IMG/VR virus record: IMGVR_UViG_2706795947_000001
Location: 12,973-76,972 of that record
Reading direction: 5' to 3' (one strand)
Length of the DNA: 64,000 nucleotides
Origin: a virus
Lineage: Duplodnaviria; Caudoviricetes
A model generated the notes under the pieces. That model ran no database searches and had not been told where the DNA came from. It saw nothing but the letters and a program-made list of their open reading frames with translations. This document shows positions 30,396 through 64,000 of this stretch, piece by piece. Position 1 is the first letter of the stretch. Each line of letters begins with the position of its first letter. Both the position numbers and the translations under genes were made by a program.

Positions 30396-30595
30396 TACTT
30401 GCTTCCCCTCTTCGTGGTAATGCCGCCCCATATGCCATCGGTCGAACCAGTGCGCTCGCGATAGTCGAGGCACTCGAGCTTAACGGGGCAGCTCATGCAA
30501 ATCTTCTTCGCGCGATTAGCGCGGGCCGCTTGTCCCCGGCCAGGGAAGAACGCGTCTGGGTCGTGATACCCTACACAGAGGGCGCGTCGGGTCCA
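30395..30595 (-). CDS. whiB: WhiB-family Fe-S transcription factor domain (start unresolved; absent from ORF track)
   Basis: Manual translation: WTRRALCVGYHDPDAFFPGRGQAARANRAKKICMSCPVKLECLDYRERTGSTDGIWGGITTKRGSK*; four Cys plus GIWGG. Confidence 0.88.
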   Translation of the reverse strand, partial: WTRRALCVGYHDPDAFFPGRGQAARANRAKKICMSCPVKLECLDYRERTGSTDGIWGGITTKRGSK

Positions 30596-30993
30596 CTCTT
30601 CGGGGACGAGACTGAAGGAGGCTTCGGGGGCGTCGGCTGTTCCGGCGTCGAACTCTTCTCCTTCTCCACAGTCGCAGAGCTCTCCGGTTCTGTCGGGTCG
30701 AAGAGCGAGGGCTGCGCAGATGCCGTTGCACCTAAAGGGCGGCGCCCCCCGGACATCTCCAGCTCGAATGCGGTCTTGGGTTCCTCGCCGTTGAGCAAGT
30801 CATCGGCGTCAGCTTGCGCATCGGCCTTCGCCTTCTGCTCCGACTGGAATGCCGTCTGCTGGAGGTGCTGCTCGAAGGCGGTCTGTGTCGGGGCCTTGGC
30901 TCGGAAGTCCTGGAATCCTTCCTGATCCATGCCACCTCGTACCGGGTGCAACTCGTTGGGACCAGCGGGCATTTTGAACTGCGGTTCAGTCAC
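30571..30993 (-). CDS. Hypothetical protein overlapping WhiB frame; QPSLF motif
   Basis: AAGGAG SD before GTG 30993. Confidence 0.7.
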   Translation of the reverse strand: MTEPQFKMPAGPNELHPVRGGMDQEGFQDFRAKAPTQTAFEQHLQQTAFQSEQKAKADAQADADDLLNGEEPKTAFELEMSGGRRPLGATASAQPSLFDPTEPESSATVEKEKSSTPEQPTPPKPPSVSSPKSGPDAPSV

Positions 30994-52201: not shown

Positions 52202-54115
52202 TTACTTCAGTCGCTTGCCCAGGTGCTGCACTACCTTGCGGTAGTCCTCCGGCCCGTCCACCTGGCAGGTGTCGAAGCCGTGCTCACGAGGGGTGTCTAC
52301 CCCCATCCCTACTGCCATCAGTGTGATGTTGTTCTTGTTGCAGTACGCGATCTCCGACTTGAGAACACGGAGCTCCTCGGTGTAGTTCGAGGCGGGCATC
52401 GCACCATCTGTGTAGTACATGAGGATGCGATCGGTTGCACGCAAGGTCTCGAGTCGCTTGCGGTAGAACTGCAGCGTGTGTCCGTCCAGGTTGCCCGACG
52501 AGGAGTCGATCATCCGCAGCGCGTTCACCTGCTCCTTGCCCCAGGGCTCGTCGCCCATCTTGATCTTGTATAGGGCGGGTCTGTCCTGGTAGTTGGTGCC
52601 ATACTCCGAGGTGTGTGCCCACACTTCGAACTTGATACCGAGCCGGCTCAGTACGTCAGCCATTGCCATGACTGCGAACTTCTCCTCGACGATGGTGTGC
52701 CCACCTGTCGAGCCGGAGATGTCCATTCCGATCACGACTGCGTAGTCCTTCTTATCAGGCGTGATCCGCTTGGCGAACAGCCTGTCGTCACCGAAGGGCA
52801 CACGCTTGGCGAGTGTCTTGCCCGACACTCGCCCGCTCCGCTGGTTGCGGATGCGCTGGCTGCGTGCGTTGTCGCCGAAGGTGACACGTGCCTGCGTCAG
52901 TGCGGGGGTGAGGTTGCGCTCGTCGGATTTGAACGACGCTGCACTGAGCGGTCGGCTGTACCCGCCTCCGTAAGCATTGCCCCTTAGTCGCTCGTGGATA
53001 ACGGGCGAGCCGATGTTCTCGGGCACATGATCGAGGTGCTTGAGTGATTCGAGTGCATCCTTCACGTCCTCCGGACGCAGCCCCTGCATACCACCAGCAC
53101 TGTCGCCCGAGCCGCCGATGTGCTTGCTGCCCTCGAACTCCTCGTCGGACTCGTCCGGCCCCTTCATGTGGATGCCGTGACCGAAGATCGCCTTGAGCAA
53201 TTCCTGGATTGCCTTGAGCAGCTCGGTCAGCTCCTCGTCGGTGTCAGGCTTGGCGAGGTACCCAGCCTTGCGGAACACCATGAGTGCGTTGGCTGCGAAC
53301 GCGAAGGTCTCGACCGTGTCGATTGCCTCGCACGAGCCTTCGATGATGGTGCGTACCTGCTTGGTGTCGATGACTTCGAGGAGTTCCTCTTTGAAGTATC
53401 CCTCAAGCTCATCGACTGTGAACCGTGATGCGAACAGGTATGCCATGCACAACTGCTGGTCATCTTCCATGTCGATGTAGTGCTTGGTCTCGCCGGTCTC
53501 GATCTTGGTCACGCCGTTGATCAGGTAGCTCAAAGACAGTGCATCGAACACATCCTGCTCGGACGGATCAAAGTTCATCCGCGCTGTATCACAGCGCATG
53601 TCCTCGCCAATGAGCATGAGTGCCGACAGCCAGGGGTCGCGTGCGTTGTTGACAGCCGAGACCATCGTCGAGCCTGTTCGGTATATCCCGTTGTTGATTG
53701 CCGCAGCCGTGTCCGTGTCGAGGTCATGGACGTACCCCCTGCGTCGGGCGACGACATCGAACGCTCGAGCCTTATCGTACTCGTCAAACGATCCGTGCAC
53801 GATGTGCCCGATCTCGTGGTTGAGTACCTCCATCACCTCCTCCTGGGTGGCGCACGCGGGACACACAGACATGCCGTCTGCCCTGCTGTTGCACATTCCA
53901 TTGTGCCGCTGCACCAGGCCCAGCTTGACGGGCGGCTCGATCCAGATGGTCTTGCCGTCCGTCAAGCTGTTCGGTCCCGCCTCGAGCTTGAGGTTGGGGT
54001 TGCCTGACACCTTGCGTGCGTGGCTGCGCAGTGCAGGGATCATGCGCTTGAACTTGCGAACCGCTGCCTCGGCCTGCTTCTTGCGAGCCAAGTCCTGTGC
54101 TTCAGTCAAATCCAC
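52202..54115 (-). CDS. VWA-domain protein (CobT/NorD-like) with HExxH N-terminal domain
   Basis: TDGKTI, NHEIGH, ED.R, DISGS MIDAS, TDG. Confidence 0.85.
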   Translation of the reverse strand: MDLTEAQDLARKKQAEAAVRKFKRMIPALRSHARKVSGNPNLKLEAGPNSLTDGKTIWIEPPVKLGLVQRHNGMCNSRADGMSVCPACATQEEVMEVLNHEIGHIVHGSFDEYDKARAFDVVARRRGYVHDLDTDTAAAINNGIYRTGSTMVSAVNNARDPWLSALMLIGEDMRCDTARMNFDPSEQDVFDALSLSYLINGVTKIETGETKHYIDMEDDQQLCMAYLFASRFTVDELEGYFKEELLEVIDTKQVRTIIEGSCEAIDTVETFAFAANALMVFRKAGYLAKPDTDEELTELLKAIQELLKAIFGHGIHMKGPDESDEEFEGSKHIGGSGDSAGGMQGLRPEDVKDALESLKHLDHVPENIGSPVIHERLRGNAYGGGYSRPLSAASFKSDERNLTPALTQARVTFGDNARSQRIRNQRSGRVSGKTLAKRVPFGDDRLFAKRITPDKKDYAVVIGMDISGSTGGHTIVEEKFAVMAMADVLSRLGIKFEVWAHTSEYGTNYQDRPALYKIKMGDEPWGKEQVNALRMIDSSSGNLDGHTLQFYRKRLETLRATDRILMYYTDGAMPASNYTEELRVLKSEIAYCNKNNITLMAVGMGVDTPREHGFDTCQVDGPEDYRKVVQHLGKRLK

Positions 54116-55662
54116 ACCTTACCCTTCACGTTCTGGCTCACGACGTTGCCGACCATCGACTTCGTCTCGGGCTCGAGGTAGTCGAGCACCGCCAGGTTGT
54201 ACGCCTTCTCGATCGGGAACCAGGCGGTTGCTCGTGCGACCTTGATCTGGTTGCGGATGCCCCAGGTCAGCGGCACCTCGTCGTTGTTGCTCATCTCGCG
54301 GATGGTTGCGGCGATGCTCATGATCGAGTCGAGCACCTGCCTGGGGATGTCGTACCCGTCGAGCTTGCAGCGCTCCTCGATGATCTGTCGTTCGAGCTGC
54401 TCGGGTGGCATGTCCACGAAGATGTGCATGAGGCGTGACCCGTCAGCGTCACCGATGACCTGCGCGCCGACGTTGCGATGGTCCCAGGCAGGGTTCATAG
54501 CCATGCCCAGGAAGCAGAACTGGTTGCGCGGCACCGCCTCGCCCTCGTTCGCGTCGTTGATCAGCTGCTTACTGTTGTCCGTGAGTGGACGAATGAACTG
54601 CCACACCTCGGGCGGACCTGTGTTGGGCTCGTCGAGTACCACCACGTTCGGCTTCTTCCAGGCAGCCACGATGCGCCCGTCCTTGAACACGGTCTCGTTG
54701 TCCTCAAAGAACATCTTGCCGGCCAGGTCGTCCTTCTCTGACTCGCCGGTGATCGAGATGCGCTCGAAAGGAATCTGCATGAGCCATGCCATGTACCGGA
54801 AGAACTCCGTCTTGCCTGTGCCTGCCTTGCCGTGCAGTGCCGGGGTCTCGTCGAGCATCAGCCACAGTGCGGCGACTGTGAACGTCAGCCCCATGTGGTC
54901 GATGTAAGTCTCGGGATGTTCCTGGTCACCAGTCGCAGGGATCTTGGCCTGCTCCTCCGGCGAGAAGATCTCACGCTTGAACACCGGCAGGTACACCTCG
55001 CGTCCGTCCTGTGTGATCTTACGCCACGCTCGGATGCCCGCCTTGTCCTGCGCAGGACTGACCGGCTTGTCAGTGGGGTAGGTGCTCGGCTCGATGCTCG
55101 TGTCCACCGAGTCCTTGTTCCACAGCTTCGAGCCACCAGGCACGTCGTGCGGGGTGAGGTACTTGGCCAGGCCGGGGTCGAGCGTGATCGAGGACAGCAT
55201 CGCTTCACGGTGCTGCTCCACGTCGGTGACCTCGCCACGCTTGGCTTCGCTGCAGCCGCGTGCGATGTCCGCTGCCCGCATGTCCGGGATCAGCTTGCCA
55301 AAGAAGGCACACGCTCCCATCGGGATGCCTAACTTGTTCGACACGGCGACAGGAGCGATGTAGAAGTAGCAGGCCTTGCAGGTCTTGGCGATGCCACTCG
55401 ATGCGACAGGTCCGCTGGGTGTGCCCACTCCGATAGTCGGAGCGATGATGACCTCGCTCGTGTTCTTGCTGTGCATCGAGCAGGTGCTGCCAACCTCGGT
55501 CATCCGATCGAGGATCTGGCTGGAGGTCATGGACTGCGTGCCAATAAGTATGCCTCGGGCTCGGCAGGTCATCAGCGATGTGGGCTTGCCGTAGATGCTG
55601 GTCTGCTGTGCTGCGTCAGCAGCCTCGACGAGGTGGGGACAGGTTCCGCATGATCTTGTCAT
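54106..55662 (-). CDS. MoxR/CobS-like AAA+ ATPase with Cys-rich N-terminus
   Basis: GKAGTGKT, VVLDEPN, AMNP, SR; AAGGAG SD. Confidence 0.88.
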   Translation of the reverse strand: MTRSCGTCPHLVEAADAAQQTSIYGKPTSLMTCRARGILIGTQSMTSSQILDRMTEVGSTCSMHSKNTSEVIIAPTIGVGTPSGPVASSGIAKTCKACYFYIAPVAVSNKLGIPMGACAFFGKLIPDMRAADIARGCSEAKRGEVTDVEQHREAMLSSITLDPGLAKYLTPHDVPGGSKLWNKDSVDTSIEPSTYPTDKPVSPAQDKAGIRAWRKITQDGREVYLPVFKREIFSPEEQAKIPATGDQEHPETYIDHMGLTFTVAALWLMLDETPALHGKAGTGKTEFFRYMAWLMQIPFERISITGESEKDDLAGKMFFEDNETVFKDGRIVAAWKKPNVVVLDEPNTGPPEVWQFIRPLTDNSKQLINDANEGEAVPRNQFCFLGMAMNPAWDHRNVGAQVIGDADGSRLMHIFVDMPPEQLERQIIEERCKLDGYDIPRQVLDSIMSIAATIREMSNNDEVPLTWGIRNQIKVARATAWFPIEKAYNLAVLDYLEPETKSMVGNVVSQNVKGKVWI

Positions 55663-61816: not shown

Positions 61817-62221
61817 TTAGCGTGCGCGACGACGTGCCAGTTTCGCGGCCGCTTTTTCACGTTTCGCGGCGGCGGTTTCACGCGCGATACGTTGCGGCGA
61901 CTTGGTGTCGACGGTCCGGACCGGGACGGTGGTCAACTTCGGCGCGCGGAATTGTGTGTTATTCAATTCTTTCATTTCACGATCCGCGTAGTATTCGCGC
62001 CAATTGGTGTCGGGGTCGTAGCAATCAAGTTTTCCATCCACGTGCCAATTGTTCTCGTTTGCGGCTTCGCGGATATTGGCGTCCATTTGGTTCAATTCGG
62101 CGCCGGTATGGCCGAGATTCTTCGATAGTGCCGTGCCACGTGTAGCCGTTAGTGACTTTCGTTCGGTCACGCGCACATCGTGCATGATGCCGTAGCCGCG
62201 ACCGGTGATGTTGTGTTTCAT
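61817..62221 (-). CDS. First right-arm gene; basic C-terminus
   Basis: AGGGGA SD; AT-richer codons. Confidence 0.65.
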   Translation of the reverse strand: MKHNITGRGYGIMHDVRVTERKSLTATRGTALSKNLGHTGAELNQMDANIREAANENNWHVDGKLDCYDPDTNWREYYADREMKELNNTQFRAPKLTTVPVRTVDTKSPQRIARETAAAKREKAAAKLARRRAR

Positions 62222-62241
62222 ATCTTTCCCCTAATGTGTAA

Positions 62242-62688
62242 GAATTGTGCCACGCTAGCTATTCGTAATTCTTTTACGAATTACTAGCGCGAAACAATTC
62301 GGTTAATGGATCTAATCGAATTGTATCGCTAATTTGTCTGATTCATTAGTTCGCATTTAATGGTACTAGCGTTATTCCCATTAACCTAACAATTCAGACA
62401 CAACGTAATGTAGTCGTTCGCGATTACCGGGACATGTCTACCGATAGTTGTCGCTATCCCCTACGCTACGTTTCATTTTTCGCACCATATCCGCGTGACC
62501 GCTAACCACATCTAACATGGTTGGTCATCCAATTTTTCGGACGCCCGCGTGCGATTGTCTAGACCACCGCTAACCCGTAGGTGCGCTAGTGGTACTAGTT
62601 GTTAGTGGCCGCTAGCGGTGGCGCGTCCCGGACCGGGCGACCGCGCGTCGCCCCGACCGGGACGACCACCGAACTAACTAACGACTAA
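62242..62688. ncRNA. Candidate structured RNA or long leader (strand unresolved)
   Basis: At least six consecutive hairpins, no ORF. Confidence 0.45.
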
Positions 62689-62696
62689 CACCGACT

Positions 62697-62790
62697 ACGT
62701 TACGGGTCGTGGTACTAGTTGTCTATAATCAAATCGTTATGATCGGAAGTCGGAAAAACCTTGACATAGTGGTACTAGTTGGTGTATCAC
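62697..62790. promoter_or_regulatory. Divergent promoter hub
   Basis: - strand TAGACA-17-TAACGT (62697-62725); + strand TTGACA-18-TATCAC (62761-62790); GTGGTACTAGTT in both spacers. Confidence 0.55.
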
Positions 62791-62954
62791 GCCTGCATCG
62801 CGGTATAGAAACGTAGCGGCTTTTGTACCAGCGGTTGTACCAACCCGGCGGCCGGCCTCCCCAACAAAGATGTGATTCATTATGGCAAAGATTAACCATA
62901 GTGAATCTAGGGTTTGAGATAGCAAAGAATTTGCTAGGGTAAAGATTCTTTGTA

Positions 62955-63144
62955 ATACTGAATGTTCTTTGTGATAGTGCATTTAATTCAGTGTAGTGAA
63001 CTTAATTGTAGATAATGAATGTTCTTTGTGATACTGAATGTTTTTTGTGATAGTGCATTTAATTGTGGATACTGAATGTTCTTTGTGATAGTGAACTTAA
63101 TTGTAGATACTGAATGTTCTTTGTGATAGTGCATTAGATGTAGG
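62955..63144. repeat. Ten contiguous 19-bp AT-rich units (iteron-like; candidate origin)
   Basis: A=ATACTGAATGTTCTTTGTG, B=ATAGTG(C/A)A(T/C)TTAATTGT(A/G)G; order ABBAABABAB. Confidence 0.9.
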
Positions 63145-63154
63145 ATAGCAAAGA

Positions 63155-63173
63155 ATAGGTAAGCCTTACCTAT
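63155..63173. promoter_or_regulatory. IdeR/DtxR iron box 1
   Basis: ATAGGTAAGCCTTACCTAT, 17/19 to TWAGGTWAGSCTWACCTWA, perfect palindrome. Confidence 0.8.
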
Positions 63174-63266
63174 GTGTAGGGTGCATATGTACTAGGGCAT
63201 GTAGTGCTACAATGACTGGTACAATGACTGATAGTTGAATGGTGCAACTAATAATATGCGGGCATG

Positions 63267-63285
63267 TTAGGTAAGGCTAACCTTA
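63267..63285. promoter_or_regulatory. IdeR/DtxR iron box 2
   Basis: TTAGGTAAGGCTAACCTTA, 19/19. Confidence 0.88.
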
Positions 63286-63696
63286 GTTGGTACAATGGTT
63301 GGTACAAAGTAGACATGTGTCTAGCCATCCGTCCAGGTGGTACAACGCATGGTACAAAGACGAGAATCGTGGGAGTGTACACCATGAATCGCGATGCGCC
63401 TAATCGCGAGTCCCACAATGTGGGAATAGAACGTGTTCATCGCATGTTACCGAACGAGTCGTGTAACGCGGAAACGTCGTGGTCGGCGTGGTACTAGCGG
63501 GTTACCGGACCGGTCTGTAACGAACGCTAGCGGCCGAAAATTGGGTTAGTGGTACTAGGTCTACCAAACGGGGGTTCAGCGCGTCTACGGGCGTTCTAGG
63601 GGCCAGAGCACACGAAGACGTTTTTGTCAAATCGGCGAGAAAACCCTAAACGTTGGGTTTAGGGTTGACATCGTCGGAATTGTGTGCATAGGGCGG

Positions 63697-63715
63697 AAAG
63701 GTTAGCCTCACCTAA
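63697..63715. promoter_or_regulatory. IdeR/DtxR iron box 3
   Basis: AAAGGTTAGCCTCACCTAA, 17/19. Confidence 0.8.
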
Positions 63716-63920
63716 ATATGCTATAGCGAAGTCGTGGTGCACCAGCGCGAATTGTTGGCGATGTCGAAAGATCGACTTTAGGATAGTGGATGTGTGGTCA
63801 TGCGGCGTAGTGCATCTTTATTCAGACCACGCCCGTGTTCAGTTGAGAATTGCAACGACTTTTGTTGCGCGTTGCATCTGATAACGTTGCAAGTCGCAAC
63901 TAAATCGACGCCGACCAGAG

Positions 63921-63939
63921 CAAGGGAAGGCTAACCTAA
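63921..63939. promoter_or_regulatory. IdeR/DtxR iron box 4
   Basis: CAAGGGAAGGCTAACCTAA, 17/19. Confidence 0.8.
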
Positions 63940-64000
63940 CTTTGCCAGCGTGAATGTGGGATGCAACTTTGGAAAGGGTGTGTGCTAGCGTGAAGCTCTC

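Follow-up and report, generated by a model that had tools for sequence, protein, structure and literature searches.

Clustered IdeR/DtxR-type iron boxes in the non-coding right end of lytic Gordonia phages

Why would the non-coding end of a lytic phage genome carry a cluster of sequences that look like operators for the iron repressor of its host? The DNA that raises this question is a 64-kb window, the whole stretch analysed here, which covers bases 12973-76972 of the 76,972-bp virus record IMGVR_UViG_2706795947_000001. The source phage is a lytic Montyvirus (actinophage subcluster CS2) of Gordonia, and the window is its right 64 kb. A search with the last 1.6 kb of the window matched 42 Gordonia phage records at their right ends, and in 34 of these the match covered at least 80% of the query; every match reaches the end of its record, with a top identity of 95-96%, and the relatives that we fetched range down to ~80%. 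The first 191 bases of the record are exactly the last 191 of the window, and a 191-bp direct terminal repeat has been published for CS2 phages (PMC5559632, Table 1). No tyrosine or serine integrase scored above the cut-off in the phage, and a genome announcement calls these phages unlikely to be temperate (PMC4982279).

In an annotated relative of 96% identity, genes 39-108 all point away from the right end, to the left, and the last 1.78 kb holds no annotated feature. The last gene of the window likewise lies on the minus strand (134 aa, start at 62221). Beyond it lie:

62222..64000, no strand: non-coding right end, upstream of the leftward right-arm genes; GenBank relatives annotate nothing there
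63810..64000, no strand: right copy of the direct terminal repeat, 191 bp, identical to the genome start

To follow this region across relatives, we compared 15 right ends, those of 14 complete relatives (about 96% to ~80% identity) and that of the window. Small open reading frames in the right end were rejected as genes: 4 of 15 ends have the one at 63264-63497 intact, and 1 of 15 the one at 63684-63881. No Rfam family was found in 62000-64000, where there was a single sub-threshold miRNA match.

At up to 3 mismatches, TWAGGTWAGSCTWACCTWA occurs at exactly four sites in the 64-kb window, 63155, 63267, 63697 and 63921, with 2, 0, 2 and 2 mismatches, respectively:

63155..63173, no strand: iron box 1, ATAGGTAAGCCTTACCTAT, 17/19, both mismatches outermost
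63267..63285, no strand: iron box 2, TTAGGTAAGGCTAACCTTA, 19/19
63697..63715, no strand: iron box 3, AAAGGTTAGCCTCACCTAA, 17/19
63921..63939, no strand: iron box 4, CAAGGGAAGGCTAACCTAA, 17/19, within the terminal repeat

An earlier note on this DNA had reported four such 19-mers, and we recovered them at the same coordinates and with the same scores (17, 19, 17 and 17 of 19). It had also seen no comparable site elsewhere in the window, in agreement with our finding no other at ≤3 mismatches, and had placed the boxes in the phage's non-coding end, where they do lie, inside its 1.8 kb. Its distance of 10 bp between the boxes and an iteron array, however, needs correcting: the array delimited by TRF ends at 63135, and box 1 begins 19 bp past that end.

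The four boxes are spread across 785 bp with neighbours 112-430 bp apart, and are not in tandem. Because box 4 lies within the terminal repeat, it is present at both virion ends, and its left-repeat copy at 112-130 is the single additional site in the whole 76,972-bp genome; the reversed pattern, searched across the whole genome as a control, gave 0 sites. Shuffling the window 100 times with dinucleotides preserved gave 0.02 matches on average and never as many as four, and when the AT-rich 1.8-kb end was shuffled alone, 0 of 200 shuffles had any match.

The published IdeR/DtxR consensus is TTAGGTTAGSCTAACCTAA, and one consensus is common to most IdeR/DtxR proteins (PMC8464063). As described in the same source, one IdeR subunit takes each CCTAA repeat, of which there are four per site; the pentamers follow a (C/G)CT-core rule; and native IdeR sites carrying 2-3 mismatches are bound. 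Read by eye, this core is intact in all 16 pentamers of the four boxes in the window. The motif is also widespread among Actinomycetota. Among the 120 stretches listed as perfect matches in reference genomes, 118 were from Actinomycetota, judged by record titles, and none from Mycobacteriales. A tally of 301 sampled Actinomycetes genomes, including two unpublished ones (G015 and G024), found a site at ≤1 mismatch in 130, with a maximum of 13 and with a reversed control of 0 in every genome. Two of the variants in the phage boxes, G at position 6 (box 4) and C at position 13 (box 3), recur among natural actinobacterial sites. One Streptomyces genome of 8 Mb carries 9 sites at ≤1 mismatch; selected open reading frames adjoining two boxes there gave no Pfam match, and none of its five IucA/IucC genes lies close to any of the nine sites. 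In Gordonia paraffinivorans, 10 of 11 genomes are reported to have an ideR homologue (PMC9001696, Table 2).

A six-frame search of the phage itself for the DtxR N-terminal domain (PF01325) found none at E ≤1, whereas its control was detected in 14/14 genomes. Among the phage proteins, those recognisable as DNA-binding are two small HTH_17 proteins and one with a WhiB domain. The gene for the latter (30398-30700, minus strand) contains a full WhiB domain (Pfam E 1.5e-16) when its frame is read further upstream; a close relative annotates the same gene as a 33-aa WhiB family transcription factor, and that annotated start may be too far downstream. Elsewhere on the minus strand, neighbouring genes at 52205-55662 form a chelatase-like pair, one coding for a CobT_C/VWA-domain protein and the other for an AAA_5 ATPase.

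The earlier note had named lack of conservation as a refutation of its reading; all 15 related ends carry 3-4 boxes each at ≤3 mismatches, amounting to 57 sites with 23 distinct sequences. At ≤2 mismatches, the 14 complete relatives contain 49 sites, which all map to the terminal 1,124 bp or to the left repeat at 112-131, with none in the remaining ~75 kb of these genomes, and the reversed-pattern control gave 0 in 14 of 14. Box 2 is the most regular (15/15 ends at ≤2 mismatches): positions 2-18 are invariant apart from the S/W positions and an A-to-G change at position 7 in one phage, and further variation falls at the outermost positions. An aligned box 1 site is present in every end, 11 at ≤2 mismatches and 4 at 3, and box 4, which sits in a highly conserved repeat, has ≤2 mismatches in 11 ends and 3 in the other 4. 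Box 3 is poorly conserved (conservation percentile 13.6), being found at ≤3 mismatches in 9 ends and absent from 6, and three of the 15 ends, from divergent phages, have an extra box ~1,100 bp from the end. The spacing between boxes 1 and 2 ranges from 110 to 147 bp, and this variability, together with the absence of box 3 from 6 of 15 ends, speaks against a strict geometry.

The changes that do occur fall at particular positions. In the 23 distinct sites, mismatches lie at positions 1 (18 sites), 6 (7 sites) and 19 (5 sites), plus positions 13-15, and the (C/G)CT core is retained in 87 of the 92 pentamers that these sites from 15 phages contain. The sites therefore exist far above chance, are confined to one region, are conserved and keep the bases that IdeR contacts. 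As far as sequence can establish it, the IdeR/DtxR-type identity first suggested for them is well supported: one site matches at 19/19, boxes recur in place and number in 15/15 ends, the mismatches spare the core, and the phage itself encodes no DtxR-like protein.

Other members of cluster CS set a limit on what the boxes can be for. The CS3 phage Woes has one site, syntenic with box 2 and with the same inverted repeat and palindrome alongside, and Katyusha (CS4) and GTE7 and GMA7 (CS1) have 0 sites at ≤3 mismatches. The boxes are thus dispensable for the basic life cycle, and we conclude that they are a lineage-specific overlay, outside the core machinery of cluster CS.

Do such clusters occur in other phages? 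An exact-consensus scan of 2.9 million IMG/VR contigs matched 36 stretches, nine of which are related to one another at 73-100% identity and unrelated to the window. These nine contigs (G302-G304; loci L141, L146-L148, L151, L155, L159, L162 and L171) form an uncultivated lineage of about 45% GC. Its portal protein shares 73% identity with its counterpart in Actinomycetia phage DSL-LC01 and 59-65% with those in large Microbacterium phages; no box occurs in its named relatives DSL-LC01 and Pumpernickel. Each contig carries 2-4 boxes inside one ~1.5-kb intergenic region, upstream of an HTH gene and the portal gene, and one genome of 125.8 kb, 93% complete, has its 3 sites at ≤2 mismatches within 390 bp, with none elsewhere. 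In that intergenic region 8 promoter-like sites were counted where 3.6 would be expected. Among them, four are strong and sigma-70-like (TTGACT-N17-TAGAAT or TATAAT), arranged in tandem on one strand, and two of the boxes begin 36 and 47 bp past the -10 element of such promoters. The 1.5-kb region, at L151 6750-8220 (G304 ~79,000-80,400), also contains the short repeats GCGGTAATGC and TCCTAATGA. Two further IMG/VR contigs, L144 (4333/4374; 64% GC) and L164 (3876/3928; 55% GC), each pair a perfect box with a 2-mismatch site 41-52 bp off and are candidate phage DNA or prophage host flanks.

The recurrence of box clusters in an unrelated lineage argues that actinophages acquire them by selection. 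It bears directly on the idea that the boxes are passengers without a function, perhaps left over from host promoter DNA that was once captured. No phenotype is known for them and other CS subclusters manage without, as that idea would have it, but passengers would hardly be kept in 15/15 ends that are as little as ~80% identical, with changes compatible with the consensus, or appear as an independent cluster in another lineage, and we regard this explanation as very improbable.

Boxes 1 and 2 stand among several other repeated or symmetrical elements:

62589..63558, plus strand: GTGGTACTAG, five copies (62589, 62709, 62769, 63488 and 63549), 0 expected from shuffles
62823..62842, minus strand: TGGTACAA pair, pointing toward the right-arm genes
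62946..63135, no strand: tandem array, period 38, 4.8 copies (TRF), 30-33% GC, the most AT-rich stretch
63205..63225, plus strand: TGnTACAAT pair lying between boxes 1 and 2, spaced by 12 bp and extended -10-like; putative promoter
63232..63250, no strand: inverted repeat TAGTTG-N7-CAACTA, directly left of box 2, read by eye, conserved in the alignment and in Woes
63288..63357, plus strand: two more TGGTACAA pairs, 63288/63300 (deleted in 7/15 ends) and 63338/63350 (kept in 15/15)
63310..63323, no strand: palindrome TAGACATGTGTCTA, right of box 2, read by eye, in 15/15 ends with ≤2 changes, box-adjacent in Woes

Boxes 1 and 2 border a trough of 30-39% GC. TGGTACAA has seven copies, paired at 12 bp, that resemble TGnTACAAT extended -10 elements, and GGTACAAT in the region of the TGnTACAAT pair is conserved across the alignment. 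At the settings used, an inverted-repeat finder returned nothing in the region; the TAGTTG repeat and TAGACATGTGTCTA are by-eye readings. At ≤1 mismatch, GTGGTACTAG also has three minus-strand copies at the genome left end (232, 496 and 704; locus L003), and because the right-end copies are on the plus strand, the two sets converge on the terminal repeat. Two copies of GTGGTACTAG are located between -35-like and -10-like hexamers. GAATGTT-core repeats likewise flank the terminal repeat, as the period-38 array on the right and as scattered TAGGAATGTTT on the left (L003 370-650), and may be candidate sites for a phage replication or packaging protein. The highly conserved stretch 63395-63560 includes a palindrome, TCCCACA-A-TGTGGGA, and two inverted repeats of the form GTTACC-N11/12-GTAAC, with spacers that differ from phage to phage.

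Promoters in the window are weakly called: a standard scan found 4, not above the 3.3 expected by chance. A relaxed scan, run without a control, put -10-like elements on the plus strand ahead of boxes 1 and 2, at 25-42 bp upstream, as well as minus-strand -10-like elements whose -35 positions fall inside these boxes; we treat these promoter-like elements as leads, not findings. The nearest gene start is 930-1,700 bp away from the boxes, which leaves no clear regulated gene.

With so many phage-specific repeats in the region, which must bind something, the iron boxes might themselves serve another binder, a phage-encoded regulator or some other host factor, and merely resemble IdeR operators. 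Along with its two HTH_17 proteins the phage has many proteins of unknown function, and 18 of the 23 distinct phage sites depart from the consensus at position 1. Set against this are the 19/19 match to a consensus of roughly 33 bits, variation that tracks its degenerate positions, the lack of a DtxR-like domain in the phage and the presence of the same motif in an unrelated phage lineage. A binder other than IdeR is, on balance, quite unlikely.

The explanation that we favour, tentatively and with a probability of roughly 0.45, is that the boxes are genuine host Fe(II)-IdeR operators with an effect in cis on the terminal control region. IdeR binding of the boxes, the sign of its effect and the process that it targets are all parts that we infer. 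When iron is sufficient, host Fe-IdeR would occupy the boxes, two dimers per box. Bound there, it would act in cis on the adjoining promoter-like elements and the repeat array by occlusion, as a roadblock, or by remodelling an AT-rich nucleoprotein complex. The outcome would be that terminal-region transcription, and perhaps initiation of replication as well, follows the iron status of the host. IdeR is described as repressing where its box overlaps a promoter or transcription start, and as activating bfrB from four tandem upstream iron boxes by antagonism of Lsr2 (PMC9132128); both modes, repression and bfrB-like activation, are conceivable at the phage boxes. We favour control in cis because boxes 1 and 2 are fixed in a conserved composite module and because the boxes of the second lineage lie just downstream of strong promoters. 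It counts against this reading that repression under iron-replete conditions would bring the phage no obvious benefit.

The earlier note had proposed two mechanisms, a sponge and gating of replication or transcription in cis. In the first, the boxes would have no target in cis and work as decoys. Replicating genomes, with 4-5 boxes each, would then titrate Fe-IdeR, so that host siderophore and uptake genes would be derepressed and ferritin induction lowered, and iron would become available for phage-directed synthesis. The total per region stays at 3-4 while box 3 and the extra box turn over, and such turnover fits selection on box number. No gene adjoins the boxes, and the phage encodes a WhiB-domain protein. 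WhiB-domain proteins need iron-sulphur clusters. Host sites may also be few: with only 9 sites at ≤1 mismatch in the 8-Mb Streptomyces genome, a few hundred phage copies could outnumber those of the host. In Rhodococcus infected by phage WC1, iron-uptake genes rise and bacterioferritin falls (PMC10986025), the one published actinophage case of a host response resembling an IdeR-off state. As an example of a sponge, however, WC1 had to be rejected: it has 0 sites at ≤3 mismatches, so that the Rhodococcus iron response needs no boxes. Moreover, each genome has a single perfect box, and a pure decoy would not require boxes 1 and 2 to be fixed in a conserved module. We consider titration as the sole function of the boxes unlikely.

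Control in cis and titration could also follow one another in a single infection. With the iron sensor of the host as input, Fe-IdeR would occupy the boxes and keep the terminal promoters or origin in one state while the phage genome is present as one copy; multiplying genomes would then out-titrate IdeR, flipping the switch as a copy-number timer and derepressing host iron uptake, an arrangement that would have evolved independently in the second lineage. This combined scheme is speculative, and we rate it as rather doubtful.

A third way in which IdeR might serve the phage starts from the composition of the region. Lsr2 prefers AT-rich DNA, and Fe-IdeR might displace or reshape it on the AT-rich terminal DNA, so that promoters or origin would fire in iron-replete cells and be deferred in starved ones. 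Boxes 1 and 2 edge the 30-39% GC trough of a phage of 58.9% GC, compared with 67.8% for the host (PMC5559632), and bfrB, with its four tandem boxes and Lsr2 antagonism, provides a precedent (PMC9132128). The phage boxes, by contrast, are 112-430 bp apart rather than tandem. In mycobacteria, Lsr2 is described as required for productive phage infection and as marking phage replication zones (PMC10066036), so that its removal may not help the phage. Anti-silencing of this kind is therefore improbable in our view.

How far would control of phage DNA through host IdeR be without precedent? The classic case is the DtxR operator at the tox gene of corynephages, a gene that is itself phage-borne. Regulation of tox by iron and DtxR is documented (PMC13001254). 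Like the CS2 boxes, the corynephage beta tox operator belongs to the same consensus family and sits on phage DNA, and it is read by the iron repressor of the host, as is proposed for them; unlike them, it is a single box at a lysogenic-conversion gene of a temperate phage, whereas CS2 phages are lytic and have 4-5 boxes in a non-coding end with no adjacent gene. Another parallel is the virulent Bacillus phage phi29, in which several Spo0A boxes lie near early promoters and the genome ends and development follows host physiology. Clustering and lytic lifestyle match in CS2, where the identity of the region as promoter or origin is putative. The two differ in regulator, phage type and signal (sporulation in phi29, iron in CS2), and the phi29 mechanism is proven, whereas for CS2 we infer one.

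Further comparisons fall on either side. Four IdeR boxes act on mycobacterial bfrB from AT-rich DNA some way off its promoter (PMC9132128), an arrangement that CS2 may share, but bfrB is a host gene with tandem boxes, and those of CS2 are spread over 785 bp. The LexA boxes of GIL01 (PMC4551915) and the phosphate-stress control of a Synechococcus virus (PMC10976474) are described as placing phage promoters under a host stress regulator; in contrast to CS2, these systems use other regulators, and their boxes lie at identified promoters of identified genes. The second IMG/VR lineage resembles CS2 in having iron boxes, here 2-4 perfect ones, clustered in one intergenic region with no others and differs in its unrelated sequence and in boxes that follow strong sigma-70-like promoters. 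The literature matches listed contained nothing on IdeR boxes in lytic actinophages or CS phages. The earlier note's claim to know of no description in phages is too broad in view of tox. Host-regulator boxes on phage DNA are already known; the cluster of iron boxes in a lytic actinophage is well supported as an observation made on genome sequences.

If IdeR binds the boxes, naming them labels at least one element in the large unannotated terminal regions of CS2 phages. Binding would also make these phages a clear case of a lytic phage of mycolic-acid bacteria wired to host metal homeostasis, and would offer a handle on how iron supply shapes the outcome of infection in soil and wastewater actinobacteria. 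Because they are short, defined and conserved, the boxes allow the idea to be tested directly. The conserved cluster suggests that the phage reads or disturbs the iron status of its host.
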